NCBI GenBank assembly: GCA_028717885.1
Contig: JAQUMX010000001.1
Location: 42,409-106,408, forward strand
From: Candidatus Omnitrophota bacterium
Lineage (GTDB): Bacteria > Omnitrophota > Gorgyraeia > Gygaellales > Profunditerraquicolaceae
Direction of reading: 5' to 3'
DNA: 64,000 bases
Part shown: piece by piece, positions 2,305-50,127 of the stretch
How positions within the stretch are numbered: the first letter of the stretch is position 1
How the letters are laid out: every line of letters starts with the position of its first letter
Made by a program: the position numbers and the translations under genes
The notes under the pieces: model-generated
What the model was told of the DNA's origin: nothing
The model's input: only the letters and a program-made list of their open reading frames with translations
Databases searched by the model: none

Positions 2305-3006
2305 TTATTTGTTGAAACGGAAGTTTACGAGATCCGTATCTTGCATAATATATTCTTTTGGCTCCAGCCGCATTTTTCCTGCCTGCTTTACCGCATTTTC
2401 TCCGCCCAGCTGGATAAAATCATTAAAGCTAATGATTTCTGCGCGGATAAACCCTTTTTGAATATCCGAATGAATTGCGCCCGCAGCTTCCCAGGCGCTA
2501 ACTCCTTTTTTGATCAACCAGGCGCGGGTTTCCTTTTCGCCCGTCGTAAAAAAACTGATAAACCCGCCCTCTGCCACCGCGCGAAAATATAATTTATCGG
2601 TATTTTCCAGGTCATCTTTTTCCGCGATCACTACCGGCTTTAAGGTAGCCAAAGAATAGGAAGCGATTGCCTTCTTTTCCGCGTCATCTAAAGCCGCGGC
2701 TGAAGCGAATTCCTCTTTTTCCAGGGCCGCTTTTATTTTTTCGGCAATTGCTTTTTCCGCCGGCTCGCTAATCCGGCTTAAACGTGTTTCAATAAATTCC
2801 AGGTCCTTTAAGATCAGGTCTGCGCGAAAATCTTTGAGTGTCACCACTGTATCGGACTCATAAAGGCCGTCTTCGCCTACCAAATCCACCTGGACATAAG
2901 TCTTCTTTTTGGCCTTAGTAATCTTATCTACTTCATCCAAACGGCTGTCTTTAACGTTCACCTTACCTAATTTAATTTCTGGGAGAGAAAATAAAGAGAT
3001 TTTCAT
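2305..3006 (-). CDS. YchF/Obg-family protein fragment: coiled-coil insert plus TGS domain, lacking the N-terminal P-loop G-domain motifs
   Basis: 233 aa. The C-terminus (EKETRAWLIKKG...IHSDIQKGFIRAEIISFNDF...AGKMRLEPKEYIMQDTDLVNFRFN) is colinear with the YchF TGS domain. The ATG overlaps the stop of the upstream gene (TAATG), so there is no room for a G1 motif. Confidence 0.6.
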   Translation of the reverse strand: MKISLFSLPEIKLGKVNVKDSRLDEVDKITKAKKKTYVQVDLVGEDGLYESDTVVTLKDFRADLILKDLEFIETRLSRISEPAEKAIAEKIKAALEKEEFASAAALDDAEKKAIASYSLATLKPVVIAEKDDLENTDKLYFRAVAEGGFISFFTTGEKETRAWLIKKGVSAWEAAGAIHSDIQKGFIRAEIISFNDFIQLGGENAVKQAGKMRLEPKEYIMQDTDLVNFRFNK

Positions 3007-4964
3007 TAAACTTCCACTTCTGCTTTCCTAGTTGCCTGGTATTGGTTAATAATTCCCGAAGCGATTCTTTGCGGGACTTCTTCATAATGCGAATAACGCA
3101 TGGTGTACGAGCCTCTGCCGCCGGTTAAAGAACGTAAGTCATTGGCATAGGTAAACATTTCCGCTAACGGCACATTGGCTTTAACAATCTGTGATTTTCC
3201 TTTGATATCCATACCCATGATCCTGCCGCGGCGGGAATTAATATCTCCGGAGATTGCCCCCAAATATTCTTCGGGGATTACGATATCAACGCTCATAATC
3301 GGCTCCAACAAAACCGGGCCGGCTGCCATGACTGCTTTTCTCAAAGCCATTGCCCCGGCAATCTGAAAAGCCATATCCGAAGAGTCAACTTCATGATAAG
3401 AACCGTCATAAAGGATCACCCGGATATCCTGGATCTGATAACCGGCAACCGCACCTTCCAAACAGGCCTGCCGAATTCCTTTCTCCGCAGAAGGAATAAA
3501 ATTCCTGGGGATCGCTCCGCCAAAAATCTTATCGACGAATTCAAAACCTTTTCCTCTTTCCATAGGCTGAATTTCGATCCAGACATCGCCGTACTGGCCG
3601 CGGCCCCCGGATTGGCGCTTGAATTTCCCCTGGACCTTAGCGCTCTTGGTAATCGTCTCCTTATAAGAAACCTTTGGTGTGCCTAAATCTACTTCGACAT
3701 TAAACCTTTTTTTCAGCCGCTCTACCATAACAGTTAAATGCAGGTCCCCTAAACCGGAAATAATCAATTCTTTTGTCTGCGGGTCATGCATCACTTTAAA
3801 AGTCTGGTCTTCTGAAGTCAATTTATGTAAAGCCACGGAAATTTTATCTTCATCTGCGCGGGTTTTTGGCTTCACCGAAGCGGAAATCGCCGGCTCGGGG
3901 AAGACAATCGGGTCAAAAAGCAGCGGGTTTTTCTCATCGCTCAAGGAATCCGAGGTGAGAGTTTCTTTTAATTTTGCAATTGCCACAATATCACCGCAGG
4001 AGGCCTGGTCAGTAGTACGCTCTTCTTTTCCCTGAAGCAGATAAACCGGGCCGATCCTTTCTTTGACCCGCTTGTTCACATTATAAAAACCGGTATTTGC
4101 CATTAATTTCCCGCTAAAGATCCTCAACAGAGAAAGCTGGCCCACATAAGGATCAGCGATCGTCTTAAAAACAAAAGCAGATAATGGCGCGTCTTCCTTA
4201 AGTGCGATCTCCTTCTTTTCTTCCGGCTTTGCCGGATTACCTGCCTCCACTTTCAGCCTTTCTAAAGGAGAGGGCAGATAATGTATTACCGCACCCAGCA
4301 ATTCTGCTATCCCCTTATCGCTTAAGCCGGAGCCGGTCAACACCGGAAAGACCTTACGGTTATCTACTGCCAAGTGCAGGCCCTGGGTAATTTCTTCGCT
4401 GGAGAGCTTTTCTCCACCAAGATATTTTTCCAGTAATTTATCGTCGCTTTCTGCGACTGCTTCGATTAAATCCGGAGCATCCATGGATTCCAAGGTGACT
4501 GCGTTCTTGGAAAGCCGTTCCTTGATATCCAGAAGCGTTTTTTGCGCATCTGCCCCTTCTTTATCGGTCTTATTGATAAAAATAAGGCACGGCAACCCTG
4601 ATTCTTCCAATAATTGCCAGGCGCGCTCTGTACCGACCTCTACGCCGCTGGTAGCATCTACTACCAAAATCGCGCTATCAACCGCGCGGATACCGGAGAT
4701 CGCCTCCCCGAAGAAATCAGCGTATCCGGGAGCATCGATAATCTGGATTCTTGTTCCCTGGTAATCGCAATAAAGCAGGCTAAAATTAATCGAGCTTTTT
4801 CTTTCGATTTCATCAGCGCTATAGTCGCTGACTGCGGAGCCTTCCATTACTGAACCTCTACGGGGGGTAGCTTTACAAAAATAAAGCATGCTTTCTGCGA
4901 GGGTGGTCTTTCCGGACTGGGCGTGGCCTAAGAGGATAAAATTCCTTTTATTCTTGGCATCCAT
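3006..4964 (-). CDS. EF-G-like translational GTPase paralogue (EF-G2/ribosome-protection-like)
   Basis: 652 aa. G1 GHAQSGKTTL, G3 DAPGYADF and G4 NKTDK are present, but the G2 region is divergent (EIERKSSI instead of ERGITI). Domain II-V-like C-terminus. Confidence 0.7.
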   Translation of the reverse strand: MDAKNKRNFILLGHAQSGKTTLAESMLYFCKATPRRGSVMEGSAVSDYSADEIERKSSINFSLLYCDYQGTRIQIIDAPGYADFFGEAISGIRAVDSAILVVDATSGVEVGTERAWQLLEESGLPCLIFINKTDKEGADAQKTLLDIKERLSKNAVTLESMDAPDLIEAVAESDDKLLEKYLGGEKLSSEEITQGLHLAVDNRKVFPVLTGSGLSDKGIAELLGAVIHYLPSPLERLKVEAGNPAKPEEKKEIALKEDAPLSAFVFKTIADPYVGQLSLLRIFSGKLMANTGFYNVNKRVKERIGPVYLLQGKEERTTDQASCGDIVAIAKLKETLTSDSLSDEKNPLLFDPIVFPEPAISASVKPKTRADEDKISVALHKLTSEDQTFKVMHDPQTKELIISGLGDLHLTVMVERLKKRFNVEVDLGTPKVSYKETITKSAKVQGKFKRQSGGRGQYGDVWIEIQPMERGKGFEFVDKIFGGAIPRNFIPSAEKGIRQACLEGAVAGYQIQDIRVILYDGSYHEVDSSDMAFQIAGAMALRKAVMAAGPVLLEPIMSVDIVIPEEYLGAISGDINSRRGRIMGMDIKGKSQIVKANVPLAEMFTYANDLRSLTGGRGSYTMRYSHYEEVPQRIASGIINQYQATRKAEVEV

Positions 4965-5083: not shown

Positions 5084-8000
5084 TTAACGCCAGGGGCCGA
5101 TTAATTTGGAAACATTCACCGTGCTGGATGTACTGTCAGTAATACCATTGCTATCCGTGACCGTCAAAGTTACTTCGTAGGTTTTATCCTGCCACCAAGG
5201 AGAATTGCGAAAAGTGTGGTCTGGGTTGGCCGCGGCAGATGAAGTGCCGTCCCCAAAATTCCAGTTGTAGCTCGCAATATCGGCGCCATCAGCCTCGGAG
5301 TTGGCGGCATTGAATTTAACTGCGGAGCCAGTAGTGGGAGCCGGAGTTTCAATAGAAATCTTTGCCTTTGGCGGCAGTTTTACGTGTAGAGTCACGGTTG
5401 CGCTATCAGAATCAAGCGCTCCGTCATTAGCCTTAAAAGTAAAGGAATCATCTCCTATATAATCGGTATTAGGCGTATATGTCAGGTCAGGCGCTGTTCC
5501 GGATAAGGTGCCGCTGGCCGGATTAGTCAGAACAATATAGGTTAGGCTATCTTTATCCTTATCCGTAGCTTTTAAAGTAATTGTTTTTGGCGTATTTTTC
5601 CGGACGTTGACTGATTGACTCTGGCTTACAGGCGCGTGGTTAACATGCTTTACTTTAATTGAAACAGTTGCCGGATCAGATTCCAGTTGACCATCACTGG
5701 CTTTAAAGGTAAATGAATCGTCTCCATAAAAACTCTCACTCGGAGTATAGGTCAAATTCGCAGCTGTTCCGGTTAATGAGCCGTTGCTAGGATTAGTAAC
5801 CACGGAATAGGTCAGGTTATCGCCATCAGCGTCGGTTGCGCTTAAAGTAATTGCGACAGGCGTATCTTCGTCAGTATTTACAGACTGATTGTGGCTATTC
5901 GGCCGATGATTAGTATGCCTGACGTTGATCGATACAGTAGCGGTATTGGAATCAAGATGGCCGTCATTGGCCTTGAAGCTAAAGGAATCCGTGCCTTTAT
6001 ACTTATTATTAGGCGTATAGGTCAAATTCGCAGCTGTTCCAGTTAATGAGCCGTTGCTAGGATTAGTAACCACGGAATAGGTCAGGTTATCGCCATCAGC
6101 GTCGGTTGCGCTTAAAGTAATTGCGACAGGCGTATCTTCGTCAGTATTTACAGACTGCTCATTAGCATATGGGGTATCGTTGATGGCATTTATCGTAATC
6201 GTGACAGTAGCGGTGTTGGAATCCGCCAGGCCGTCATTAGCCTTAAAGGTAAAGGAATCTGGCCCGTTATAATTCGCAGTCGGCGCATAGTTCAGGTTAG
6301 GCGCTGTGCCTGAGAGCGTACCATGCGCAGGATTAGTCACCACGGAAAAAGTCAAATCATCGCCGTCTACATCGGTAGCGGTCAAAGTAATATCTTTAGC
6401 CGTATCTTCATCCGTGGTTACGGATTGGTTATCGGCTATTGGCGCGTTGTTATTAGAAACCTCGGTAATCCCATCCGAATAACCGATACTGCTCCAACTC
6501 CCTGCCCCGTTCTTAGCTTTTACGCTAAAATAATAGGTCGTGCCTTTTACCAAACTTAAACCTCCGGAAGTAACTGATGCGGTCGTGCCGGTAGAGGTCC
6601 AATCAACGATTGCTTCTCCATCGGCAGAGTCTTGGGTAATTTTGTATTGGTATTCCTGGATCCCTGACTCTGCATCAGTAGAGCTAAAAGAAGCGTATAG
6701 CTGATTCTGATTGGAAGTCGTAGCGCCCTCATCGGTAACTACCGGTGTCGTGGGCGCACTAGTATCACCGGCTGCTGCCACTGCCCGGGCAGCATTGATC
6801 CTGCCGTAACCGAAGTAAGAATCTTTTCCTGCTGCACCGAGGTCATCGGCGCTAGAACGCAATAACCATCTGATTTCTGCGTCGGTAAGGCTAACGTTTT
6901 TAGCCAATATTAAAGCTATCGTGCCGGAAACATGCGGGCAAGCCATTGAGGTGCCCGAGGCTTCGGCGAGGTAATTCTCGTCCGTAGCTAAACTTAAAAT
7001 TTTCACTCCCGGAGCCGATACCCACACCGCATCTCCCCAGTTAGATTCCGTGTAACGCGCATCATTATAATCCGTGCCGGAAACTGCGATCACTTTCGCG
7101 TAATTGGCAGGAGAATAATAAGCCACATCATCGTTACTATTGCCCGCGGCAAAAGTAATAATACAGCCTTTTGAATAGGCATAATCTACTGCTGCTTCTG
7201 CCACCGGGTCATAAGCTAATCTGGACTCCGGCCCCCAGCTATTATTGACCACCCGCGCTCCGTTATCAGCGGCATAATGTATCCCTTCGGCTAAATCAGT
7301 AACATATCCCGAACCACCATCCCCTAATCCTTTACAAACCATAATCTTGGAATTAAAAGCAATGCCCACGACTTCATAATTATTATTCCCCACTGCGGCA
7401 ATAGTCCCTGCGACATGCGTTCCATGGCCGACAACATCCGTGGGATTGCCGTCCCTGTAAACAAAATCGTAGCCATTTACGTCATCGATGTAGCCGTTCC
7501 CGTCGTCATCAACACCGTTGCCGGCTATTTCATCGGAATTAACCCAGAGATTGCTTTGTAAATCAGGGTGGCTTAAGGCAGCTCCGGTATCTACTACAGC
7601 CACTACAATATTATCGCCCCGGGAACTATCCCACGCCGTGCCGCACTGAATTTTTTTTAGGCCATAAAGATCATCAAAAGGACCTAAAAGCCCGCTCGAA
7701 CTGTAAAACGGGTCATTCGGAGTAAACGAACTCTTCATGCGGTAATTTGGCTGGGCGAATTCAACTGAAGAATTATTTTTTAAAATAGAGACCACTTCTT
7801 CCGTAGTTGCCCCTTCGGGAATGGTAATTTTATAAATCCGGAATAATCTTTGCTCTTCCGGGCTTAATTTCTTATAGGCCTCGGCAAAAATCTCTTCTTC
7901 GGTTACCTCCTGGTATTTTTTTCCAAAGAACCAATACCAATTATCCGAATCCTTTTCCAAACGGTTTTCTTTTTTGAATTGGTTCACTACGCGGGTAATC

Positions 8001-8401
8001 GGAAAGACCCTTTTTAATTCCAGATAGGGGATTTTTGCTTCTGCGAGTGCGCGGGAAGGCGACGCATTCTCTTTAAAACCCACCACCACCTGGTTTTCTA
8101 CCGGCTGAATAACAGGAGCAGCGTTTTCCTCAGGCACCGCTACCTGCGTAGCGGGTGTTTCGCCATCGCTTAAAGCCTTTTGCCGCACTTGGCCATCTTG
8201 CTTGCTCAGCTGGTTCACTGGATAAAGCACAAATTCGCCTTTTTCTATGCCTTTCATTGGTTCGGCATTATTATTTGTATTCGGCTCTTCTTGCTCCGGA
8301 ATAAAGATTTTATTGATCGCCTCTTCGCCGGCAGCATTTGGATGCATTGGCCAAGAAAGAAACACAAGTAAGAGGATGCAGATCGTCATATTTTTGATCA
8401 T
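5084..8401 (-). CDS. Secreted subtilisin-like (S8) serine peptidase with four tandem cadherin/Big-like repeats and a C-terminal PKD domain
   Basis: Signal peptide MIKNMTICILLLVFLSW. S8 triad motifs VAVVDTGA, HGTHVAGTIAA and GTSMACPHVSG. Four ~90-aa repeats (SVNTDEDTPVAITLSATDADGDNLTYSVVTNP...). PKD-like WNFGDGT at the C-terminus. Confidence 0.85.
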   Translation of the reverse strand: MIKNMTICILLLVFLSWPMHPNAAGEEAINKIFIPEQEEPNTNNNAEPMKGIEKGEFVLYPVNQLSKQDGQVRQKALSDGETPATQVAVPEENAAPVIQPVENQVVVGFKENASPSRALAEAKIPYLELKRVFPITRVVNQFKKENRLEKDSDNWYWFFGKKYQEVTEEEIFAEAYKKLSPEEQRLFRIYKITIPEGATTEEVVSILKNNSSVEFAQPNYRMKSSFTPNDPFYSSSGLLGPFDDLYGLKKIQCGTAWDSSRGDNIVVAVVDTGAALSHPDLQSNLWVNSDEIAGNGVDDDGNGYIDDVNGYDFVYRDGNPTDVVGHGTHVAGTIAAVGNNNYEVVGIAFNSKIMVCKGLGDGGSGYVTDLAEGIHYAADNGARVVNNSWGPESRLAYDPVAEAAVDYAYSKGCIITFAAGNSNDDVAYYSPANYAKVIAVSGTDYNDARYTESNWGDAVWVSAPGVKILSLATDENYLAEASGTSMACPHVSGTIALILAKNVSLTDAEIRWLLRSSADDLGAAGKDSYFGYGRINAARAVAAAGDTSAPTTPVVTDEGATTSNQNQLYASFSSTDAESGIQEYQYKITQDSADGEAIVDWTSTGTTASVTSGGLSLVKGTTYYFSVKAKNGAGSWSSIGYSDGITEVSNNNAPIADNQSVTTDEDTAKDITLTATDVDGDDLTFSVVTNPAHGTLSGTAPNLNYAPTANYNGPDSFTFKANDGLADSNTATVTITINAINDTPYANEQSVNTDEDTPVAITLSATDADGDNLTYSVVTNPSNGSLTGTAANLTYTPNNKYKGTDSFSFKANDGHLDSNTATVSINVRHTNHRPNSHNQSVNTDEDTPVAITLSATDADGDNLTYSVVTNPSNGSLTGTAANLTYTPSESFYGDDSFTFKASDGQLESDPATVSIKVKHVNHAPVSQSQSVNVRKNTPKTITLKATDKDKDSLTYIVLTNPASGTLSGTAPDLTYTPNTDYIGDDSFTFKANDGALDSDSATVTLHVKLPPKAKISIETPAPTTGSAVKFNAANSEADGADIASYNWNFGDGTSSAAANPDHTFRNSPWWQDKTYEVTLTVTDSNGITDSTSSTVNVSKLIGPWR
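5760..6160. repeat. Near-identical ~129-nt direct repeat (period 270 nt) inside the protease gene
   Basis: 5760-5888 and 6030-6158 are essentially identical at the nucleotide level. Two further diverged copies follow, matching the protein domain repeats. Confidence 0.8.
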
Positions 8402-8436: not shown

Positions 8437-8505
8437 AAAAACCCCTAGGGTAAATTCCTAGGGGTAGATAAACAAAAAACTCTAAAGGTAATCTTTAGAG
8501 TTTTT
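8437..8505 (-). terminator. Two tandem rho-independent-type hairpins
   Basis: cccctaggg-taaattc-ctagggg and ctctaaag-gtaatc-tttagag, each flanked by an A-run on one side and a T-run on the other. They lie downstream of the minus-strand OMP gene. Confidence 0.5.
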
Positions 8506-8696
8506 CTCTTCTGGCAGCTCCGCTACCCCCGACAAAAATGTCTTGGGCCGGAAGCTTTGCGCCCCCAGGTTACCCTGAGTTTACCTTTTTCAGTATTACA
8601 AAATACCAAATTGTCAAATTACCATTACATAAAAAAGTATAGCATATTTTAAAGGTTTTTCAATAATCGGCGCTATATATAGGTAAGGGTTTAGGG

Positions 8697-9935
8697 CTAC
8701 CAGATATACCTTAATATTACGGAAGGATAATAGAGGATGCTGTTGACGTTTCTGATAAAATCTTCATTATCATAAATCAGGCCTGGCTGGTTGGCCGATT
8801 CTTTAAGTTTGCGCTGTTTACGCAGGAAATAATTGAAAGCAACGCCTCCCATAAGATGGGAAGTGATTTTATAGTCCAACTCGATCGACGCATCTATGCC
8901 AAAGCCGTTCCTGCCGTGCTGCTCGAAAACATTATTGGTCAGGTTCCACCAGCCATATGCTTTTGTAGTCAGCCACGCATAGGCAAACTCCATCCGGCCG
9001 GAAAACCTGCCGGAGGTAACTAAAGTACGGAATCCGAACCTGGGGCCGCGGTAGAAAACCTTGTAAAACGAATCTTCTCCGGCAATCGGATTATCCGTCG
9101 GCACCCACCACTCCACGGTATCTATTTTGTCGGTAGTGCGGTAACGGCTTTTTTGCCACTGGTAACCTACCAACAGGTCAAAAATCAAGCTGTCGTTGGG
9201 ATTACCCATTTTGAATAAATCGAATAGTTCGCCGAATTGCTTGTTTTCCCGCACCGTATCGGCATTTAAATCCAGTAGCCGGTAATAAAAATTAATATCC
9301 GAAAGCTGCGCCTGTGCTTTTTCGCGCGAATGCGACTCAAACCAGATGTCGGGATTAGTTGCCGGCTGCCAGTCGGTATCTGTAGCATATGATTTTTTAA
9401 AAAGGCTGCTGTCGAATTTTCCGCCAAGGAAAAATTTATCCAAATATCCCATCTCTCCTTTAACGCCGTACATTTGCCCGCGGTTCGGATAAAATAAGCG
9501 CGAGATTTTCCTGCTCGCGCCGTCAATAACCTCGAAGGTTTGCTCTCCCTGAACACAAAAACCGTATTCCATGGCCAAATCAAATTCCAATTTAGACAAA
9601 ACTTTCTCAATGGTAGATTTTCTTGCGTTTGAGGCATCTTTGGAACCTTCAATAAGAGGATTGCCTGCAGGAGGGTCGTTAGCTAATGCGGGATCTTGCT
9701 GGCTTAACCCCTGATCAAGCATCACGGAGTTTAAAGCATCTTCTCTTTGTGCGCGGGAATGAATGACTGATTCGGTGAGGTCCAGGAACTGATTGATTTG
9801 ACCGGCCCTTATATCCGTAGGCATCTCTGCCAGGGCAAACACGGGAAAAAGCAAAAACCCAAACAGGAAAATCTTCCCCGATAAATGCTTATTCAAGGTA
9901 AGTATAAATTTTGCCCTTAAAATTGCGCAAAACAT
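8697..9935 (-). CDS. Outer-membrane beta-barrel protein (signal peptide, C-terminal aromatic residue)
   Basis: The ORF-track frame is 8697..10007. The likely start is the Met at 9935 (MFCAILRAKFILTL...FALAEMP signal), which leaves only a short overlap with the kamA stop. Ends ...VILRYIW. Alternating amphipathic pattern. Confidence 0.4.
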   Translation of the reverse strand: MFCAILRAKFILTLNKHLSGKIFLFGFLLFPVFALAEMPTDIRAGQINQFLDLTESVIHSRAQREDALNSVMLDQGLSQQDPALANDPPAGNPLIEGSKDASNARKSTIEKVLSKLEFDLAMEYGFCVQGEQTFEVIDGASRKISRLFYPNRGQMYGVKGEMGYLDKFFLGGKFDSSLFKKSYATDTDWQPATNPDIWFESHSREKAQAQLSDINFYYRLLDLNADTVRENKQFGELFDLFKMGNPNDSLIFDLLVGYQWQKSRYRTTDKIDTVEWWVPTDNPIAGEDSFYKVFYRGPRFGFRTLVTSGRFSGRMEFAYAWLTTKAYGWWNLTNNVFEQHGRNGFGIDASIELDYKITSHLMGGVAFNYFLRKQRKLKESANQPGLIYDNEDFIRNVNSILYYPSVILRYIW

Positions 9936-11085
9936 ACTTTCCTTTTGCCTGAGAAAGGATATAGTTTGGCCCAACGGGAATTTTTCCGCCGCCGCCCGGG
10001 CCGTCAATCACATAGGTGGGCACTGCATAGCCCGAAGTGTGGCCGCGTAATTTTTCCATGATATTTATCCCTGCGGCTACGGGCGTACGGAAATGCTGCG
10101 TCCCTCTTACGGGATCGCATTGATAAATATAATAGGGACGGACCCTAATTTGCAGTAATTCATGCACCAGGCGCTTCATAATATACGGCCGGTCATTAAT
10201 CCCTTTTAAAAGCACGGTTTGGCTGCCTAAAGGAATCCCCGCGTCGGAAAGCATATCACAGGCAATCTTGCAACGCTTGGTAATCTCTTTAGAATGATTG
10301 AAATGGATGCTGATCCAAAGCGGAGAATATTTTTTGAGCATATTCACTAGTTTTTCGGTCACGCGCTGCGGCAAAGTAACAGGCACGCGCGTACCGAGCC
10401 TTAAAAATTCCACATGGGAAATTGCGCGGATTTTTTGGATCAGGTTTTCCAGCTCTTCATCCTCAAGGATCAAAGGATCCCCTCCGGAAATCAAAACATC
10501 GCGGATTTTGCGGTTGGATTTAATATATTCAACGGCTGCGTCAAATCTTTGCGCGCCACTTTCTTCTTTTTGCTCATGTTCGCCGACCAGGCGCCTGCGA
10601 GTGCAGTGCCGGCAATACATTGCGCAGTGATCGGTAGCTAATAATAAAACCCTGTCCGGATAACGGTGCACTAAATGCGGCGCAGGAGAATCCCTGTCTT
10701 CGGCGCAAGGGTCGGTCATTTCATGCGGAGAAATCAATGACTCGGCTTCCACGGGGACTGCTTGCCTTCTGATCGGGCATTCCGGGTCTTCCGGGTCAAG
10801 CAAGGCTGCCCAATAAGGGGTAATCGCCATAGAAAGCCTGCCCTTGGCTTTATCCACACCTTTTTCTTCTTCCGGGGTTAATTTAATGATCTGGGAAAGT
10901 TCTTCTTTGTTGCGGATACGGTTCTTTAACTGCCAATGCCAATCCTCCCAATCCAAAGGGTTGACATCTTTATAAATACTGATCTGTTGATAATCGCGGA
11001 TCCTTTTGATTTGGCGCGCAGGAGTAATTTCCGTTAATAACTTTTGCTGCTCGGCAACAACGGTATTACTGTTTGTGCTGCTCAA
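9889..11085 (-). CDS. kamA: Lysine 2,3-aminomutase (radical SAM, KamA family)
   Basis: 398 aa. CAMYCRHCTRRR CxxxCxxC motif in KamA-type context, PLP-binding region. Colinear with KamA/EpmB over the full length. Confidence 0.85.
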   Translation of the reverse strand: MSSTNSNTVVAEQQKLLTEITPARQIKRIRDYQQISIYKDVNPLDWEDWHWQLKNRIRNKEELSQIIKLTPEEEKGVDKAKGRLSMAITPYWAALLDPEDPECPIRRQAVPVEAESLISPHEMTDPCAEDRDSPAPHLVHRYPDRVLLLATDHCAMYCRHCTRRRLVGEHEQKEESGAQRFDAAVEYIKSNRKIRDVLISGGDPLILEDEELENLIQKIRAISHVEFLRLGTRVPVTLPQRVTEKLVNMLKKYSPLWISIHFNHSKEITKRCKIACDMLSDAGIPLGSQTVLLKGINDRPYIMKRLVHELLQIRVRPYYIYQCDPVRGTQHFRTPVAAGINIMEKLRGHTSGYAVPTYVIDGPGGGGKIPVGPNYILSQAKGKYVLRNFKGKIYTYLE

Positions 11086-12086
11086 TTGGACTTACCTTTC
11101 CTTTCTGAAGCGCTAAGCAATATCGCTTCGATTAAATCTTCGTAGCGCATGCCCGCGGCATAGGCCATGATCGGGAAATTAGATTCCTTAGGGTCTAAGC
11201 CCGGTAAAGGGTTGATTTCCAAAACATACGGCACATTATTAGAATCAAGCCGGATATCGGTCCGGGAAATATCCAGGCAGCCTACTGCACGGTGCGTCTT
11301 GAGCGCTGCTTCTTTAACCAATTCTTCGGTTTTTTTATCCAGGCGCGCAGGGCAGTGAAAAGTAGGGACCAATCCTAATTGTTCGTTACCCTGGAATTCT
11401 TTCATCCTCCAGGAATAAAAATATTCTCCGCTGTTTTTGCAGGTGGAAAAATCGATCTCCAGGATAGGCAGTATTGAAGTCTTGCCGTTTTCCAGAATAC
11501 CGACGGTCAATTCCTTACCTTCGATAAATTCTTCTACCAGGGCCTCCTGTTTATACACGCGGATCACTTCTTTTACCTTATTCATAAGGTCCTGCTGATT
11601 ATGCACCACGTTGGATTTATTAATCCCTTTGGCCGATCCTTCGCAGTTGGGCTTGACAATCAAAGGAAATTTCAAATCCGGCGATAACGCAGCATTCTCT
11701 TTGGAAAAAACCTGGAAATTCGGAGTAATTACCCCTTCTGCTTTTAATATTTTTTTCGTAAGCGCCTTATTCAAAGCAAGCGCCAGAGAAAAAGTGCTCG
11801 AACCGGTGTAAGGAATATTCAAATAATCCAGGATTGCCGGGACTTCAGATTCGCGGAACTTTCCGCATCTTCCCTCTGCGATATTAAAAACCATATCTAC
11901 GCGGTTTTTCTTAAAAAAAGAAAAAAGGCGCGGGTATTCCACATCGATTGCTTCGACGCTGTGCCCTTTGGTTTTTAGAGCAGAGACAATTGCGCCTATG
12001 GTCTCTTCGGAGTCAAATTCGGAGAAATAATCCTCGGGCTTGGTCTGGTCCTTTTTCTTCAAATTATAGGTAAGTGCGACTTTCAT
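11082..12086 (-). CDS. ATP-grasp ligase, D-alanine--D-alanine ligase-like
   Basis: 334 aa. Ddl-like three-domain layout; ATP-grasp motifs (FPLIVKPNCEGSAKGI, ...EEFIEGKELTVGIL..., LEINPLPGL). Start overlaps the kamA start codon region (ATGA). Confidence 0.7.
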   Translation of the reverse strand: MKVALTYNLKKKDQTKPEDYFSEFDSEETIGAIVSALKTKGHSVEAIDVEYPRLFSFFKKNRVDMVFNIAEGRCGKFRESEVPAILDYLNIPYTGSSTFSLALALNKALTKKILKAEGVITPNFQVFSKENAALSPDLKFPLIVKPNCEGSAKGINKSNVVHNQQDLMNKVKEVIRVYKQEALVEEFIEGKELTVGILENGKTSILPILEIDFSTCKNSGEYFYSWRMKEFQGNEQLGLVPTFHCPARLDKKTEELVKEAALKTHRAVGCLDISRTDIRLDSNNVPYVLEINPLPGLDPKESNFPIMAYAAGMRYEDLIEAILLSASERKGKSN

Positions 12087-12093
12087 CTGTATT

Positions 12094-13086
12094 TTAATTA
12101 AGGTTATACCTCTTGATTGCGCTATCCAGTATTTTTCCGATCATCTGTTCATAAGTAATCCCGATCTCTTTTGCCACCAACATAAAAACATCTTCCGTGG
12201 AAAGCGAAGGAAGCGGGTTAATTTCCAAAACAAAAGGGTTCCCCTCGTTATCTACGCGGAAATCTACCCTCCCAAAATCACGGCATTCAACCGCAGTATA
12301 AGTCTTTAAAGCCAAATCCTCGATTTTTTTCCTTAATTCCGGAGCGAGCCTCTCCGGACAAACATATTCCAGCCTGTCGGAAGTAATCCTGGCAAAGGTA
12401 TAGAATTTATCGTTAAGCTTGAACCTGCCGTCAATTTTAATCTGTACGATGGGCAACACCTCCGGCTGGTCATTTCCCACGATTGCCACGGTAAATTCCT
12501 GGCCGCTGATAAATTCCTCGACCAGCGCCGGCTGTTTATAGGTAGTCACGATAAATTCAACCTGTTTTTTTAGCTCATCCATATTTTCCACGCGGGAATT
12601 TTCGCTCAAACCCTTGGAAGAGCCTTCAAAACGCGGTTTTACGATTAAAGGAAACTTGCAATGGTCCGCATTTACCAATTCCTCCGTATTTTTTACCTCG
12701 AAAAATTTCGGCGTAGGGATTTTTTCCGCGATAAAAATCTTTTTTGCCATCACCTTATCCAAGGTAAGCCCCAATGTCAAGGCATCGGCCCCGACAAAAG
12801 GTATTCCTGCCATTTCCAGAACTACCGGCACTTGCGATTCGCGGTTCCTGCCCGTCATACCCTCGGAAATATTAAAAACAATGTCAACTTTCAACGAATC
12901 GATTTTTTCCAGAAGGTTGGTGACATTGCCGATACGCTCGACCTTAAAGCCGTTTGCCTCGATAGCCTTGGCAATGACGTCGATAGTGGATGGCGCGTCG
13001 AATTCCGCATTTGCATCCTCCGGATCATCGGCTTTAAATTTATAATCTGTTTTTAAATCGTAGGTTAACCCGACTTTTTTAGCCAT
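12094..13086 (-). CDS. ATP-grasp ligase, D-alanine--D-alanine ligase-like (second tandem paralogue)
   Basis: 330 aa, same architecture as the neighbouring ligase (FPLIVKPRFEGSSKGL; EEFISGQEFTVAIV; LEINPLPSL). Confidence 0.7.
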   Translation of the reverse strand: MAKKVGLTYDLKTDYKFKADDPEDANAEFDAPSTIDVIAKAIEANGFKVERIGNVTNLLEKIDSLKVDIVFNISEGMTGRNRESQVPVVLEMAGIPFVGADALTLGLTLDKVMAKKIFIAEKIPTPKFFEVKNTEELVNADHCKFPLIVKPRFEGSSKGLSENSRVENMDELKKQVEFIVTTYKQPALVEEFISGQEFTVAIVGNDQPEVLPIVQIKIDGRFKLNDKFYTFARITSDRLEYVCPERLAPELRKKIEDLALKTYTAVECRDFGRVDFRVDNEGNPFVLEINPLPSLSTEDVFMLVAKEIGITYEQMIGKILDSAIKRYNLN

Positions 13087-13317
13087 TATACTTAATTATT
13101 TCCGTTTTTTACAAATTTTACACAAAAAAAGGGCCCTCTCTTTCCTCCTGAGCCCTGATCATAAGCCTATTTTTCCAATTTCTCTATTTTCCTCGCTTAA
13201 ATCGCTAGAATTTTCCCTAATTTACCTATTTAACAATATTTTTTTATCATAACCTCGGCTCTTTGTCAAGCATTTTTTCTCGACGAGAAATTCGATAAAT
13301 CGAGTGTTTTTAATTAT

Positions 13318-16300: not shown

Positions 16301-17692
16301 CTATTCCTGGTTATAGGGTTTGCGAAAAAGAGAGCGGAATTTTGCGAAAAATTTCCCAGGATAATTCGATAAATACGCAGCCGGGGAAGAAATTACTTCC
16401 TGCAAAGAAAGATTCTGATCTTCGGCAACGCTGATGGACTCATACAATAATTTCTTCAGGTGTTCGTAATCGATCCCTCTAATCTTCGGCTCGTAACTAC
16501 TCCTGCGGTAACGATCATGGCTATCGATCAATGAAAGGTTATTCTCTATACAATACTGAAAAAGATCGCTCCCGGGATGCGGGGTATAATAAGCCGGGCT
16601 ACAGTGATAAGGCCGGATTTTTTTAATCATTGTTACCGTCTCTTCCTGCTCTTCCTTAGTCTCCGTCGGCACGCCCAACATATAATTCGCCCAGATTTTG
16701 ACATTTAGCTTATGGCAAATTTCTGCGGCCTCCAGGTTCTGCTCTAGGCTACATCCCTTCTTTAAAAATTTTAAGATCCGGGGGCTGCCGCTTTCAAATC
16801 CGATCAGGCAAAGGATTAGCCCGCAATCACGCAAACGCCTAAATGCATCCTTATTTTTCACGATCAGATCCGCCCTGCTTTGGCAAACAAAGGGCTGCCG
16901 GAAACCGTTGCCCTGGTATTTATCGCAAAATTCCAATACCCATTTCCTATCTTCGGTTAGGCAGTCATCATGAATCATGAATGAGTTAAACCTGAATTTG
17001 CTGCGCAGGGCTTTTAATTCCTCGATAACATTGTCAACGCTCCTGCGCCGCACGTTCTTGCCGAAAATAATCCTTTCCGCCGGCTGGCAATAATTACAGT
17101 TATAGGTGCAGCCGCGGCCGGCAATAATCGTGACAAATGGCCGCAACAAAAACGGGACAAAAGGCTCTTCCGGTAAAGCAAACAGGCCCCTGTCCACAAA
17201 AGGCAACCTATCCAAGTCAGGTTTTTCTCCGTAAATTAAACGCGGATTTTGTTCTCCTGCTTCTTCCTTACGCAAGAAGTCTAATAATGAAACCTCCGCT
17301 TCGCCGACAAAAACGTGGTCTATATTATTATTTGCCGCAAGCTCTTCCGGGGCAATTGAGGCGTGCGCGCCACCCACCAACACCTTAACCCTAGGACGGA
17401 TGCGCTTAATCGTTTCTATGCATTTATTCACCGGATTGAAATCAACGCTCATCATGGTTAATCCGGCGATATCGAAATCCTGTTCTGTCAATACACTTTC
17501 AAGATGCTCCCAGCCTTTTAGCCTTCGCAGGTCGATCAGGCTTACGGGATAGCCGGCAGATTTCAAAGTGGCACTTATGGAACAAAGGCCATGGTTCATC
17601 CAGCTGCCTTCATTCCCGGAAGCATTATTAAAACCGCTCTCGGTTATGCCGGCATAGAAGAGAATTATTTTTTTCTTGAAAGAAGGTCCCAT
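16301..17692 (-). CDS. B12-binding-domain radical SAM enzyme (class B, probable C-methyltransferase or related)
   Basis: 463 aa. N-terminal cobalamin-binding Rossmann-like region, then CTYNCNYC radical SAM cluster motif. Confidence 0.75.
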   Translation of the reverse strand: MGPSFKKKIILFYAGITESGFNNASGNEGSWMNHGLCSISATLKSAGYPVSLIDLRRLKGWEHLESVLTEQDFDIAGLTMMSVDFNPVNKCIETIKRIRPRVKVLVGGAHASIAPEELAANNNIDHVFVGEAEVSLLDFLRKEEAGEQNPRLIYGEKPDLDRLPFVDRGLFALPEEPFVPFLLRPFVTIIAGRGCTYNCNYCQPAERIIFGKNVRRRSVDNVIEELKALRSKFRFNSFMIHDDCLTEDRKWVLEFCDKYQGNGFRQPFVCQSRADLIVKNKDAFRRLRDCGLILCLIGFESGSPRILKFLKKGCSLEQNLEAAEICHKLNVKIWANYMLGVPTETKEEQEETVTMIKKIRPYHCSPAYYTPHPGSDLFQYCIENNLSLIDSHDRYRRSSYEPKIRGIDYEHLKKLLYESISVAEDQNLSLQEVISSPAAYLSNYPGKFFAKFRSLFRKPYNQE

Positions 17693-17838: not shown

Positions 17839-18684
17839 TTATATCGGCATCAACAAAAAGGAAGTTTCTTTTAAGAATATTTTTCCGAAATTTTTCTTTA
17901 GATAGCGCGCAGGGAGGTTTTTAATAATACAACAGTATCGGTTGCGCAGGCCAAAAATAAGGTAATCTTTTTTCATCGGCGTATTATCTTTTCTGGTAGC
18001 GCCGCGTTCGTGATAAGCTACTGCGGAAGGGTTATAAACACATTTCCAGTTCCTTAAACACGCCCTCCAGGAAAGGTCCACATCTTCCACGTAATTCACG
18101 AAGTCCTCGTCAAAAAATTCCCGTCCGGATCTTATATCCTCCAGCATCGCTTTCCGGTATAAAGGAGCTGCCCCGCATGCGCCAAATACAAGCGCGCCTT
18201 CAGAATTATCGTATTGACCGCGGTCTTCTTCGCTCTGCCCCCGCGGATGCATGAAACAATGCCGCATGGTAATGCCGGTAGAATCCAGGATTTTGGTTTT
18301 GTTGCCGTTAGTCTGCCGGTAAAGCTTCCCGGAGACAATGCCGATTGATGAATCGTTTTTCATCATCTTTACCATCTCCCCCACAAAATCCGGTTCCAAA
18401 AATACGTCGAAATTAAGCGGCAAAATAAATTCGCCTTTGGCTAGATGAATGCCTAAGTTGTGGCTCTTGGAAAACCCTAAGTTTTCTTTATTTTTTACAA
18501 TCTTTACCTGAGGAAAATTTTTCGCGATGTATTCCAGAGAAGAATCCGTAGAACTGTTATCTACGACTATGAGTTCAATCGCAGGATAAAGCTGTTTCTT
18601 TATGGAATCCAGGCATTTCTCGATATAGCCCGATGAATTCCAATTTACGATGGTAATAGAAACTAACCCTTCAGCGCTTTTCAT
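17839..18684 (-). CDS. Family 2 glycosyltransferase
   Basis: VSITIVNWNSSGYIEKCLDSIKKQ...ELIVVDNSSTD; LNFDVFL. Confidence 0.7.
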   Translation of the reverse strand: MKSAEGLVSITIVNWNSSGYIEKCLDSIKKQLYPAIELIVVDNSSTDSSLEYIAKNFPQVKIVKNKENLGFSKSHNLGIHLAKGEFILPLNFDVFLEPDFVGEMVKMMKNDSSIGIVSGKLYRQTNGNKTKILDSTGITMRHCFMHPRGQSEEDRGQYDNSEGALVFGACGAAPLYRKAMLEDIRSGREFFDEDFVNYVEDVDLSWRACLRNWKCVYNPSAVAYHERGATRKDNTPMKKDYLIFGLRNRYCCIIKNLPARYLKKNFGKIFLKETSFLLMPI

Positions 18685-44609: not shown

Positions 44610-44995
44610 TTTACGACGCTTCCTAATTTAACCTCTTTTTGCGGGCTAACTACCACAATCCCGTTTTCATCGGAAGCAGCCAGGATCATCCCCTGGCTTT
44701 CCACTCCCCGTAAGATCGCCGGCTCTAAATTATCTACGACTACCACTAATTTCCCGACTAAGTCTTCTTTTTGATAATAGGCCCTGATGCCTGCCACAAC
44801 CTGTTTCTGCCTATCGCCTAAGTCCAAAGTCAAAAGATAAAGCTTATCCGCATTCGGATGATCCAGGACTTCCTTGATTTTGGCGACCCTTAATTCCAAT
44901 TTTCGAAAATCTTCGATTGTAATCATTAAAGTCCTCCCTATTTTTCTTTTTTTAACTAAAGCTGAACGGAATTTATTTATGCGGGGAGCCGTCAA
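44606..44995 (-). CDS. tRNA-binding-domain protein (Trbp111/CsaA/EMAP-II-like OB fold)
   Basis: 129 aa with LELRVAKIKEVLDHPNADKLYLLTLDLGD...QVVAG, the hallmark of the standalone tRNA-binding domain. Confidence 0.7.
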   Translation of the reverse strand: MTAPRINKFRSALVKKRKIGRTLMITIEDFRKLELRVAKIKEVLDHPNADKLYLLTLDLGDRQKQVVAGIRAYYQKEDLVGKLVVVVDNLEPAILRGVESQGMILAASDENGIVVVSPQKEVKLGSVVK

Positions 44996-46633: not shown

Positions 46634-46925
46634 CGAGCATATTCCTTTTCATTAACTCCTGGGTAAACCCAAGAATATCCTGTTCTATGTCGCTTGTACC
46701 GCTTTCAAAATCGCTGCTTAAATCTTTGGCAATTACTTTTAATGTTTTTTTACCATCCATCCTGTCCCAGATCGCCCTCCCGGTTTCATTCAGGGTAAAT
46801 ATTTCATCCTCCAGGTCGCCGATTCCGCTGGTGATAGGGATAATGATAAATTCTCCTTGTACCTGCCGCGCTACCACATCTTCACTGGGTTTATAAACTT
46901 TTTCGATGCTCACCTTTTTCTCCAT
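46617..46925 (-). CDS. PqqD-family protein (RiPP recognition element)
   Basis: 102 aa with the PqqD pattern (...FTLNETGRAIWDRMDGKKTLKVIAKDLSSDFE...DILGFTQELMKRNMLV). Confidence 0.7.
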   Translation of the reverse strand: MEKKVSIEKVYKPSEDVVARQVQGEFIIIPITSGIGDLEDEIFTLNETGRAIWDRMDGKKTLKVIAKDLSSDFESGTSDIEQDILGFTQELMKRNMLVEIGK

Positions 46926-46934
46926 ACCACCCTC

Positions 46935-50068: not shown

Positions 50069-50127
50069 GCTTGTTGGGTACCTCTAGAGCTCAAAAGATG
50101 GGCCTGTTTATTTCAAAAGGCGCTTAA

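Follow-up and report, generated by a model that had tools for sequence, protein, structure and literature searches.

Two Ddl-fold ATP-grasp ligases and a lysine 2,3-aminomutase form a conserved operon in Omnitrophota, a probable module for the synthesis of a beta-lysine peptide

Introduction

Carnosine synthase is an ATP-grasp enzyme that ligates a beta-amino acid, and the mycosporine-like amino acid pathway uses two successive ATP-grasp/Ddl-like ligations, by MysC and then by the Ddl-like MysD. Paralogues of the lysine 2,3-aminomutase KamA provide beta-lysine for the translation factor EF-P. For the osmoprotectant N-acetylglutaminylglutamine amide (NAGGN), PMC8070244, citing Sagot et al. 2010, places an acetylating and ligating enzyme and a peptidase in the same operon. 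Here we describe a locus of Candidatus Omnitrophota in which KamA is encoded with two Ddl-like ligases, AG1 and AG2. It lies in a 64,000-nucleotide stretch of contig JAQUMX010000001.1 (assembly GCA_028717885.1), referred to below as the window.

Results

Organisation of the operon

Positions 8697-13086 of the window are filled by four co-directional open reading frames on the minus strand (Table 1). AG1 and AG2 are separated by a 7-nt spacer (TAA AATACAG ATG), with zero overlap, while AG2 and KamA share a 4-nt TTGA overlap, the KamA start codon being TTG and not ATG. The barrel gene overlaps KamA by 8 nt if it starts at the TTG codon at 9896, which agrees with the lengths of its homologues, or by 47 nt if it starts at the ATG codon at 9935, the choice of the NCBI record (P0402). 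The four genes named in the first-pass annotation are therefore confirmed and are tightly packed, but its ATGA-type overlaps at all junctions are not upheld: an overlap of the NTGA type occurs at one junction only.

Table 1. Features of the operon and its leader, in window coordinates
Feature	Position	Strand	Description
Sigma-70-like promoter	13241-13269	-	TTGACA 13269-13264, 17-nt spacer, TAAAAA 13246-13241, TG at 13249-13248
Leader core	13167-13196	-	SD-like GCGAGG 13196-13191; mini-ORF TTG GAA AAA TAG 13178-13167
Intrinsic-terminator-like hairpin	13124-13155	-	Stem arms within 13155-13131, T-run 13130-13124; between leader and AG1 start
AG1	12094-13086	-	330 aa; Ddl-fold ATP-grasp ligase, KamA-linked 'type A' family, NPLPSLSxxD subfamily
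AG2	11082-12086	-	334 aa; type-A ATP-grasp ligase, paralogue of AG1
KamA	9889-11085	-	398 aa; lysine 2,3-aminomutase, short form
Accessory outer-membrane beta-barrel	8697-9896 (TTG start) or 8697-9935 (ATG start)	-	Omptin-like fold

Conservation was judged on the 67 species-level Omnitrophota loci that are long enough. KamA directly follows the ligase gene or genes in every one of them, so that the adjacency holds throughout the phylum; AG1, AG2 and KamA are contiguous in 63 of the 67, and the other four have AG1 and KamA. The recurrence of this order indicates that the arrangement is more than chance. The conserved core consists of AG1, AG2 and KamA, and the barrel protein lies outside it. 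Across 31 genomes, the median identities to the window proteins are 82% for KamA, 77% for AG2 and 76% for AG1, above those of PurH (72%) and EF-G (71%) in the same genomes, which suggests that the operon proteins are under strong selection.

The ligases AG1 and AG2

Both ligases match the Pfam family Dala_Dala_lig_C (E = 3e-39 for AG1 and 4e-36 for AG2) and are 41% identical to one another. Their NCBIfam Ddl scores of 189 and 201 bits lie below the cut-off of 243, and in the NCBIfam scan neither reaches the cut-off of any Ddl family. The AlphaFold2 (AF2) model of AG1 has a pLDDT of 96.2, and its best Foldseek matches are Ddl structures, with a TM-score of about 0.8 at 23-28% identity; the full Ddl fold and the ATP/Mg residues are present in both proteins. 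Residue mapping of AG1 onto Escherichia coli DdlB reveals that the equivalents of K97, K144, S150, S151, E180, E187, R255, D257, E270 and N272 are retained, whereas Glu stands at the position of H63, Arg at that of K215, Ile at that of Y216 and Asp at that of S281, and AG1 also deviates at the position of G276. AG1 thus departs from Ddl at second-substrate positions, and this pocket carries Asp in AG1 but Ser in both Ddl and AG2. AG2 retains the PG...S motif that marks the site in Ddl; its version, NPLPGL...S, is the canonical form common to the KamA-fused ligase domains. In the N-domain of both ligases, the HGxxGEDG of Ddl gives way to EGxxGxxRES, within the family motif FNIxEGxxGxxRES.

No mur or fts genes were found beside the ligases in any locus examined. 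Taken together, the scores, the N-domain motif and the synteny support the view that AG1 and AG2 are not housekeeping Ddl enzymes. The first-pass annotation had recognised two paralogous ligases, which is borne out and can be refined in that both are of type A and arose by duplication within the Omnitrophota lineage. It had also named clustering with housekeeping Ddl, with mur/fts synteny, and loss of KamA adjacency as evidence against its proposal; we found neither, which favours the idea of beta-lysine amide ligation. The AG1 family comprises more than 120 clusters at at least 80% identity. Some members have no KamA nearby, and the family is therefore not limited to beta-lysine.

KamA

KamA contains the Pfam domains Radical_SAM and LAM_C and matches the lysine 2,3-aminomutase (LAM) structure 2A5H with E = 4e-146 and 57% identity. 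The CAMYCRHC (CxxxCxxC) motif and the equivalents of Asp293, Asp330 and Lys337 of 2A5H are kept, that is, the PLP-binding lysine and both aspartates that contact the lysine epsilon-amine; these aspartates are invariant across 15 fusion proteins. The score is 354.7 bits on NCBIfam TIGR00238 (cut-off 199.2) and 522.5 bits on TIGR03820, just under its cut-off of 525.4, as compared with 258 bits on the EpmB model, whose cut-off is 369. All module-linked KamA domains, including this one, lack the C-terminal ~50 residues of the clostridial enzyme. We infer that KamA is a lysine-type aminomutase, LAM/AblA-like rather than EpmB-like.

The leader

Upstream of AG1 lies a putative promoter, proposed on its match to the consensus, whose TTGACA-N17-T(G)ATAAAAA arrangement aligns in about 40 Omnitrophota loci. 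It is followed by a mini-ORF in which the TTG-RAA-AAN bases are invariant or near-invariant in 42 aligned leaders, the encoded peptide ranging from 3 to about 27 codons among loci. Each locus has a single copy of the composite motif GGAGG-N8-16-AWTTGRAAAA, in every case immediately upstream of AG1, and the motif is found nowhere else in the Omnitrophota loci searched; its sole other match is in a locus outside that set (L094). The terminator-like hairpin is predicted in both the MFE and the centroid folds and is the sole helix that RNAalifold detects as conserved among 42 loci; in many loci its T-run ends 4-8 nt ahead of the AG1 start. Neither the RNAalifold analysis of the 42 loci nor the MFE and centroid folds gave a conserved alternative (antiterminator) structure. 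As judged from sequence, the predicted promoter, mini-ORF and terminator make up a conserved and operon-specific leader. The operon would be transcribed from its own promoter through this leader, and because a strongly initiating mini-ORF precedes an intrinsic terminator, expression is probably under attenuation control.

The outer-membrane barrel

The product of the fourth gene has a signal peptide and a C-terminus ending in ...RYIW, and it scores 23.6 bits against the Pfam family 'Pom' (cut-off 22.4). In its AF2 model (pLDDT 77), a barrel spans residues 104-398 approximately, preceded by an extra helical region of low confidence. The family comprises only 13 clusters, and the gene is found in the operon in only three lineages, each time directly after KamA. 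The closest folds are those of OmpT and Pla (E about 1e-14, TM-score 0.75-0.81 on the target). As these omptins have no pore, we rejected the porin or export role that had been suggested for the protein. It differs from the omptins in its added N-terminal region and is only about 15% identical to them; no histidine is invariant in the 13-member family, which gives no support to an omptin-type Asp/His catalytic set.

The module beyond Omnitrophota

Adjacency of KamA and ligase, which the first-pass annotation proposed to look for in other phyla, is found there and in archaea, and includes natural fusions. We identified more than 60 KamA-ligase fusion clusters, in both domain orders, from Omnitrophota, Nitrospirota (Cand. 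Magnetoovum), Eubacteriales, DPANN archaea (Woesearchaeota, Nanoarchaeota) and Methanocellales; type A is the ligase type repeatedly fused to KamA. Ligase-ligase fusions account for 32 of the 150 closest representatives at 50% identity, and an Elusimicrobiota homologue of AG1 has KamA 4 kb away. Outside Omnitrophota, the partner of type A is a ligase of another kind, 'type B', and a GNAT usually accompanies the pair. This small acetyltransferase is the only recurrent neighbour there (18 of 39 module loci), and none of the module-linked GNATs matches AblB. GNAT-HDAC proteins occur in three module loci, a Peptidase_S58 gene follows one ligase-ligase fusion and, in Eubacteriales, a fusion gene lies close to an oppositely oriented operon for lysine biosynthesis. 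The Omnitrophota loci show no consistent linkage to a GNAT, a peptidase or a dedicated transporter, although three of them have an MFS transporter after KamA.

Discussion

The gene content, conservation, fusions, folds and residue patterns described above are observations, and from here we infer the chemical steps, product and regulation of the operon. We think it probable that the operon is a dedicated module that builds a small beta-lysine peptide non-ribosomally, and the findings point to a previously undescribed pathway. Homology and the conserved substrate residues suggest that KamA, a radical-SAM/PLP enzyme, would convert L-lysine to (3S)-beta-lysine. A type-A ligase would then use ATP to form an acyl-phosphate and join beta-lysine to a partner by an amide bond, and the second ligase would add a further residue. 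Given the Asp/Ser difference in the second-substrate pocket, AG1 and AG2 most likely each perform a ligation of their own, and they may do so as a heterodimer resembling Ddl. As product we consider a di- or tri-peptide of beta-lysine most likely, small, soluble and cationic, that is kept in the cytoplasm, where it could serve as a solute or polyamine-like cation; the GNAT encoded with the module in other phyla would N-acetylate it there. The GNATs, GNAT-HDACs, S51 and S58 peptidases, nearby lysine-biosynthesis operon and MFS transporter are hints of a small-peptide product. The source metagenomes are mostly from groundwater, freshwater and sediment, settings that speak against an osmolyte of the classical salt-stress kind, and conservation exceeding that of EF-G is odd for a solute pathway and may reflect a more central role. 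Also weighing against this reading are the AG1-family members away from KamA, the want of a consistently linked GNAT, peptidase or transporter in Omnitrophota and, for the leader, the lack of a conserved antiterminator.

Other roles have to be weighed against this one. In the window, the operon adjoins a ~43-kb glycan locus that encodes GT2, GT4 and GT1 transferases, Wzy_C, Wzt and numerous radical SAM proteins; about 16 of 80 Omnitrophota loci have GT2 and Wzy genes immediately upstream, and genes for envelope proteins recur as insertions after KamA (the omptin-like barrel, lipoproteins and further proteins with signal peptides). The ligases might accordingly couple beta-lysine through an amide bond to a carboxylate on a surface polysaccharide or a lipid-linked sugar, or make an envelope-attached beta-lysine peptide, with the glycan locus and the barrel serving the same process. 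We consider this unlikely, since the operon appears to have a promoter and leader of its own, many loci have upstream genes with no relation to glycans, the barrel is confined to its three lineages, and the module is also found in archaea, whose envelopes are quite different, and has no glycan neighbours in the loci examined outside Omnitrophota. Iterative synthesis of a cyanophycin-like or poly-beta-lysine-like polymer, instead of a defined di- or tri-peptide, would be in keeping with loci that carry anywhere from one to three ligase genes, and with a natural polypeptide that fuses Peptidase_S51 (the cyanophycinase/dipeptidase E family), ligase and KamA. That fusion is, however, a single case among the 120 proteins listed; to our knowledge, characterised Ddl-fold enzymes form single amide bonds, and the additional Mur-ligase-type domain that cyanophycin synthetase requires is absent here. 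A storage polymer thus seems quite improbable.

In 43 of 58 Omnitrophota loci the operon is followed by the genes for EF-G and a YchF-like protein, and the conservation is on a par with that of translation genes; with the supply of beta-lysine to EF-P by KamA paralogues as precedent, an ATP-grasp enzyme might modify a protein such as a translation factor with beta-lysine, in place of EpmA. Yet EF-G is not adjacent in the remaining 15 of the 58 loci, insertions at the junction vary, KamA is not EpmB-like, and the module is found in other phyla away from translation genes and in archaea, where hypusinated aIF5A takes the place of EF-P. The characterised Ddl-fold enzymes of which we know act on small molecules, and we regard protein modification as very unlikely. 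Finally, one or both ligases could be the cell's own D-Ala-D-Ala ligase, with KamA placed beside them by a chance of gene order peculiar to the phylum. Among characterised families, Ddl comes nearest in both sequence and fold, AG2 has kept the second-substrate motif, source databases name the protein 'D-alanine-D-alanine ligase', and a search of 1.31 Mb of partial loci, a small part of each genome, turned up no canonical ddl. Set against this are the sub-threshold Ddl scores of both ligases, the replaced N-domain motif, the missing mur/fts synteny and the fusion of the same ligase type to KamA in many lineages, including DPANN archaea and Methanocellales, which lack murein. We judge a housekeeping role to be highly improbable.

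For the beta-lysine peptide module that we favour, comparison with known enzymes begins with Ddl (VanA/B/C family; EC 6.3.2.4). AG1 has in common with Ddl the three-domain ATP-grasp fold over its full length, the ATP, Mg and acyl-phosphate residues and, probably, the chemistry (carboxylate to acyl-phosphate to amide). It differs in its 23-28% identity to the solved structures and scores below the curated cut-offs, in its N-domain motif and in the changed positions of DdlB H63, K215, Y216, G276 and S281, and both ligases lack dcw synteny and are genetically tied or fused to KamA. KamA resembles the Clostridium subterminale LAM (2A5H; 57% identity) in its Fe-S motif, PLP lysine and lysine-binding aspartates, and AblA of the N-epsilon-acetyl-beta-lysine pathway in its score of 522.5 bits on the AblA model (cut-off 525.4). 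It lacks the C-terminal ~50 residues of LAM, no lysine-fermentation genes lie near the operon and, unlike the AblA/AblB pathway, the Omnitrophota operon has no AblB-type acetyltransferase. As in the EpmB/EpmA system, a KamA-family enzyme would make beta-lysine for ATP-dependent amide ligation, but the operon KamA is not of the EpmB type, the ligase is an ATP-grasp enzyme and not a LysRS paralogue, and the KamA-ligase module extends to archaea. Carnosine synthase and MysC/MysD offer analogies for the proposed ligation of a beta-amino acid by an ATP-grasp enzyme and for two consecutive ATP-grasp/Ddl-like ligations in a single pathway, respectively; both act on other substrates, and neither involves a radical-SAM aminomutase. 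In its mode of working, the module is reminiscent of NAGGN synthesis (Ngg/AsnO), which PMC8070244 presents as the ATP-dependent, non-ribosomal production of a small N-acetylated peptide solute by an acetyltransferase and a ligase function. Modules outside Omnitrophota that combine KamA, one or more ligases and a GNAT, with occasional peptidase fusions, would parallel that gene set. Beta-lysine would take the place of glutamine, the Omnitrophota operon has no GNAT, and AG1 and AG2 showed no homology to Ngg when scanned against Pfam and NCBIfam; the resemblance is one of mode of working and not of family membership.

Organisation of the operon

In the window, which derives from a Candidatus Omnitrophota MAG, four ORFs follow one another in the same orientation on the minus strand, confirming the operon recognised in the first-pass annotation; their positions, and those of the leader elements considered below, are collected in the table. 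The accompanying claim that ATGA-type overlaps run throughout holds only in part. AG2, the second of the two Ddl-like ATP-grasp ligases, and KamA, the lysine 2,3-aminomutase, overlap at a TTGA in which TTG is the KamA start codon, and KamA overlaps the fourth gene by either 8 nt or 47 nt, but AG1, the first ligase, is separated from AG2 by a spacer of 7 nt.

Positions of the operon genes and of the leader elements upstream of AG1
Feature	Position	Strand	Type
AG1	12094-13086	minus	ORF
AG2	11082-12086	minus	ORF
KamA	9889-11085	minus	ORF
Fourth gene, signal-peptide protein	8697-9896 (TTG start) or 8697-9935 (ATG start)	minus	ORF
Leader promoter, TTGACA-N17-TAAAAA with upstream TG	13269-13241	minus	sequence motif
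Leader SD-like element (consensus GGAGG) and mini-ORF	13196-13167	minus	sequence motif
Leader GC hairpin and T-run	13155-13124	minus	predicted intrinsic terminator

KamA resembles lysine 2,3-aminomutase

KamA aligns with clostridial lysine 2,3-aminomutase (2A5H; E = 4e-146, 57% identity). Its CAMYCRHC segment, the radical-SAM CxxxCxxC motif, aligns with C125, C129 and C132 of that structure and its GGGGK with the PLP-binding K337, while the YQCD and VIDGPGGGGK segments align with D293 and D330, the lysine epsilon-ammonium aspartates. The equivalents of this aspartate pair, which are replaced in glutamate 2,3-aminomutase, are invariant in 15 KamA-ligase fusion proteins. Lysine 2,3-aminomutase (KamA/AblA) is EC 5.4.3.2. 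KamA passes the KamA family model TIGR00238 (354.7 bits, cut-off 199.2) and falls 3 bits short of the AblA equivalog TIGR03820 (522.5 against 525.4 bits) because its C-terminus is short, ending at the equivalent of residue 367 of lysine 2,3-aminomutase; the match ends at position 360 of the 417 in the model. The protein is far from EpmB (TIGR03821, 258 bits against a cut-off of 369.3), and no class-II aminoacyl-tRNA synthetase-like gene was found among the called operon neighbours. Nor did any context listed contain kamDE, kdd, kce or kal-like neighbours indicative of lysine fermentation.

AG1 and AG2 differ from D-alanine–D-alanine ligases

AG1 and AG2 are paralogues with 41% identity, and each matches Pfam Dala_Dala_lig_C. 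The AF2 model of AG1 is very confident (pLDDT 96.2) and has the three-domain ATP-grasp fold of Ddl; the top 50 Foldseek matches in the PDB are all Ddl or Van ligases at TM scores of about 0.75-0.85, the nearest with a TM score of about 0.8 and identities of 23-28%. The ATP, Mg and transition-state residues of Escherichia coli DdlB, K97, K144, E180, E187, R255, D257, E270 and N272, correspond to K111, K150, E190, E197, R273, D275, E288 and N290 of AG1, which are invariant across the family alignment, and S150/151 is likewise kept.

The D-Ala site is altered. H63 of DdlB is replaced by E75 in AG1, K215/Y216 of the omega loop by R233/I234, G276 by S294, S281 by D299 and L282 by V300, with D299 invariant within the AG1 subfamily. 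AG2 keeps Gly and Ser at the positions of G276 and S281, in the sequence PGLDPKES, and is without the HGxxGEDG motif of Ddl. In the N-domains of both ligases this motif is replaced by FNIxEGxxGxxRES, and both carry AE[FW]D before the first helix. Every curated Ddl cut-off is missed by both proteins: AG1 and AG2 score 189.4 and 200.6 bits with NF002378, the broadest Ddl model (cut-off 243), and 165.0 and 165.4 bits with TIGR01205 (cut-off 245.65).

No mur or fts (dcw) genes were seen in the window or around the ligase genes in 84 loci. A stretch at 44973-58456 has dcw-like ORF sizes and was considered as a dcw cluster; it was rejected on finding that its genes are for glycan, ABC transporter, radical SAM and phosphate transport functions. 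In 1.31 Mb of partial loci, which represent part of each genome only, there was no candidate for a canonical ddl beyond AG1 and AG2.

Conservation within Omnitrophota

Homologues of AG1 at 80-97% identity, which bear Omnitrophica or Omnitrophota names, fall into more than 120 clusters built at 90% identity. Scanning one genome per GTDB species with a 12-sequence alignment as the query confirmed 583 relatives. The best 80 of these loci are all Omnitrophota, either labelled as such or bearing names that are generic or seem to be wrongly assigned (Planctomycetales, Margulisiibacteriota, 'bacterium'); other phyla were reached through the fusion proteins and a metagenome scan. KamA directly follows the ligase gene or genes in all 67 loci that extend far enough (tblastn), the order being AG1-AG2-KamA in 63 and AG1-KamA in the other four. 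Among 31 genomes holding all of the compared genes, the median identity to the window protein is 82% for KamA, 77% for AG2 and 76% for AG1, compared with 72% for PurH, 71% for EF-G and 61% for the YchF-like protein.

The genes for EF-G, the YchF-like protein and PurH lie downstream of the operon in 43 of 58 loci. In the window, the 652-aa EF-G (2305-4964, minus strand) passes the EF-G cut-offs with a match in two stretches that leaves out about 45 positions in the model's G-domain insertion. The gene that follows encodes 233 aa with the C-terminal YchF domain only, its N-terminal half being unassigned; its counterpart in L175 and L176 is called as 120 aa only.

KamA is 40-260 nt from the next gene in 41 loci, with variable insertions in the others, and this junction with the next conserved gene is an insertion hot spot in Omnitrophota. 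An MFS transporter follows KamA in three deep-branching loci (L070, L071, L083), a 190-aa lipoprotein in L075, L082 and L084, and unrelated signal-peptide proteins in L001, L007 and L061, some with an aromatic last residue as in outer-membrane proteins.

The module in other phyla

Clustering of the AG1 family at 50% identity gives, among its 150 closest representatives, 32 ligase-ligase fusions and 3 ligase-KamA fusions, the latter in both orders. One KamA-ligase fusion used as a query led to more than 60 further fusion clusters from Omnitrophota, Candidatus Magnetoovum (Nitrospirota), Eubacteriales, Woesearchaeota, Nanoarchaeota, Methanocellales and unnamed archaea. Magnetoovum and Methanocellales share the arrangement KamA-ligase fusion, ligase, GNAT; in Woesearchaeota-type loci the fusion is followed by two ligases. 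The synteny of kamA with Ddl-like ligases, a check suggested in the first-pass annotation, extends to other phyla. Eubacteriales encode a ligase-KamA fusion with a dapA-dapB-dapF-lysA operon a short distance off on the opposite strand, in Elusimicrobiota 4 kb separate an AG1-type ligase from KamA, and an unassigned locus (L088:8001-10835) encodes a single 944-aa Peptidase_S51-ligase-KamA protein, preceded by the gene for an F390-synthetase-like adenylating enzyme. KamA is lacking beside a ligase-ligase fusion at L174:8001-11432, which has a gene for a Peptidase_S58 of the DmpA/BapA family after it, and near one further AG1-type gene.

For neighbour clustering, ORFs were called in 87 fetched loci, 39 of which carry both a ligase and KamA. 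A GNAT of about 166 aa, present in 18 of these 39, is the sole neighbour that recurs. Identification of these GNATs with AblB was rejected, as only generic GNAT models were matched. No homologue of this family was detected in the window or in 84 Omnitrophota loci, where the scanned window ORFs and the called genes near the operon were also free of GNAT domains. Three metagenome loci have a protein with GNAT and histone-deacetylase domains after KamA (for example L116:12827-14572). At L086:12439-13371 (Woesearchaeota) an EgtD-like Methyltransf_33 methyltransferase follows the KamA-ligase, ligase, ligase cluster; it scores 95 bits, below the cut-off, on the L-histidine N-alpha-methyltransferase model, and could hint at a betaine-type modification or be a coincidence.

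A motif table separates two types of ligase. Type A, the type fused to KamA, has AE[FW]D, RES, EGSSKG and NPLPGL; type B, the usual second ligase elsewhere, has EDASxG, YxAKW and NPNPDIS. AG1 and AG2 are both of type A, AG1 belonging to a derived subfamily with NPLPSLSxxD, and a simple orthology of AG1 and AG2 with the ligase pairs of other phyla was therefore rejected.

A candidate attenuator upstream of AG1

The window shares the ordered elements of the leader with at least 50 of 80 loci (for example L015:9846-9992 and L033:9845-9990). An invariant TTG-RAA-AAN opens mini-ORFs of 3 to about 27 codons; the hairpin and T-run come about 45-60 nt after this TTG, and many loci have just 4-8 nt between the end of the T-run and the start of AG1. 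In the Omnitrophota DNA searched, the composite motif occurs once per locus, just upstream of AG1 only; one other match, in L094, lies outside this set. We considered a riboswitch or other structured aptamer and rejected it: an Rfam scan at E-values up to 1 gave no match, RNAalifold across the leaders found no conserved helix except the terminator stem, and the fold is not more stable than that of shuffled sequence (z = +0.82). On these grounds the leader, which is specific to this operon, looks like a translation-dependent attenuator and is a candidate new one.

The fourth gene and its surroundings

The product of the fourth gene is 100% identical to the NCBI entry 'hypothetical protein PHT31_00270 [Candidatus Omnitrophica bacterium]'. 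Its family comprises 13 clusters only, all from Omnitrophota, and besides the window the gene is found in two other divergent lineages, in every case with KamA directly before it. The model (pLDDT 77 overall, lower at the N-terminus) contains a long ten-stranded beta-barrel over residues of about 104-398. The closest Foldseek matches are OmpT (1I78) and Pla (2X55), with E-values of 4e-14 to 2e-13 and target TM scores of 0.75-0.81, with OpcA and a Legionella T4SS porin ranking next; matches to general porins and FadL are poor, and the export or porin role proposed in the first-pass annotation is not supported. Omptins employ catalytic Asp-Asp and His-Asp pairs; the 13 homologues of the fourth protein have several invariant Asp/Glu residues and no invariant His. 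Given the rarity of the family, the omptin-like fold, the poor porin matches and the lack of an invariant His, we describe the predicted structure as an accessory barrel of omptin-like type; a role as a protease or as a channel for export of the product is not supported. A 327-aa unannotated protein after KamA in L001, considered as a possible diverged homologue of the barrel, aligns with it in hhalign over the N-terminal 76 columns only (probability 86%).

Beyond the fourth gene, the minus strand carries a c-di-GMP-I-GGC riboswitch at 8509-8594 (62.4 bits, cut-off 59) within a region, 8441-8663, that also holds a promoter-like site before it (8663-8636) and terminator-like hairpins after it (8506-8474 and 8465-8441). 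It lies just upstream of the gene for a 1105-aa secreted-type subtilase (5084-8401) with Big_9, cadherin-like and PKD repeats, of which tblastn found no homologue in other Omnitrophota loci. On the other side of the operon, at about 13318-56822, lies a very large glycan-type locus. Its products include three Wzy_C proteins (O-antigen-ligase-like), several transferases of families GT2, GT4 and GT1, an amine oxidase and a Wzt ABC ATPase. Radical-SAM genes number at least six; one encodes a B12-binding radical SAM (16301-17692), and another (18681-21671) a 996-aa protein in which GT1, a coiled coil and radical SAM/SPASM domains are fused.

Proposed function of the KamA-ligase module

KamA and a type-A ligase constitute the minimal universal unit. 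Such a pairing is a classic signature of consecutive steps, and the type-A ligase therefore most likely uses beta-lysine. Retention of the Ddl catalytic set points to acyl-phosphate chemistry, by which the ligases would form an amide bond. The presence of a second ligase, together with the differences between AG1 and AG2 at second-substrate positions, suggests that a further, different ligation would follow, and the frequent ligase-ligase fusions would be in keeping with a Ddl-like dimer whose two subunits differ. The GNATs, deacetylase-domain proteins, peptidases, MFS transporters and proximity to lysine biosynthesis fit a small, turnover-prone, amine-rich peptide. We infer all of the chemical steps and the product. 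The conserved KamA adjacency and the fusions in other phyla support and considerably strengthen the earlier proposal that these ligases join beta-lysine in amide linkage.

A housekeeping Ddl is unlikely in view of the scores below cut-off, the different motifs, the lack of dcw synteny and the fusion of the same ligase type to KamA in archaea, which have no murein. Hundreds of database entries named 'D-alanine-D-alanine ligase' are probably mis-annotated, and the name could distort cell-wall inferences in these lineages. Decoration of a glycan or the envelope is suggested by the neighbouring glycan locus and the envelope genes inserted nearby; this setting does not extend beyond Omnitrophota, and we consider such a role improbable. 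A polymer product, to which the single S51 fusion would point, seems slightly less probable again. Slightly less probable still is the idea that the ligases make no free metabolite and link beta-lysine, alone or within a beta-lysyl peptide, to a component of the translation apparatus encoded beside the operon, with EF-G and the YchF-like protein as conceivable targets, or to EF-P from a gene elsewhere; the evidence for it is the synteny within the phylum. Were it true, it would represent an ATP-grasp-based counterpart of EpmA-type beta-lysylation, and would account both for AG1, AG2 and KamA being more conserved than EF-G and for a leader with a ribosome-dependent mini-ORF.

Beta-lysine has known roles in lysine fermentation, where it is an intermediate, in the synthesis of the osmolyte N-epsilon-acetyl-beta-lysine, whose precursor it is, in the modification of EF-P and in a few antibiotics, of which it forms a building block. 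A widespread module that couples Ddl-like ligases with the making of beta-lysine would give it one more fate, in peptides built by ATP-grasp enzymes. Throughout the uncultured phylum Omnitrophota the module belongs to the core and exceeds EF-G in conservation, and it recurs, often fused, in Nitrospirota, Firmicutes, Elusimicrobiota, DPANN archaea and one order of methanogens. We found no description of it in the searchable literature on aminomutase, KamA or beta-lysine with ATP-grasp or Ddl, or on Omnitrophota with aminomutase or Ddl; the enzymes are of known kinds and it is their combination for which no description was found. The KamA-ligase fusions, as compact two-domain proteins, could be expressed for identification of the product.

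Comparison with known systems

The AblA/AblB pathway pairs AblA with the acetyltransferase AblB, whereas the Omnitrophota operon is without an adjacent AblB-type GNAT. EpmA/EpmB combines an EpmB-type aminomutase with the LysRS-like EpmA, neither of which is found in the operon or among its called neighbours. Because conservation is unusually strong and the sample sources named in the locus titles are mostly non-saline, we would argue for a role in Omnitrophota more central than classical osmoprotection. The closest working precedent for the module is the NAGGN pathway, in which, according to PMC8070244, one enzyme both acetylates and ligates and a peptidase is co-encoded.
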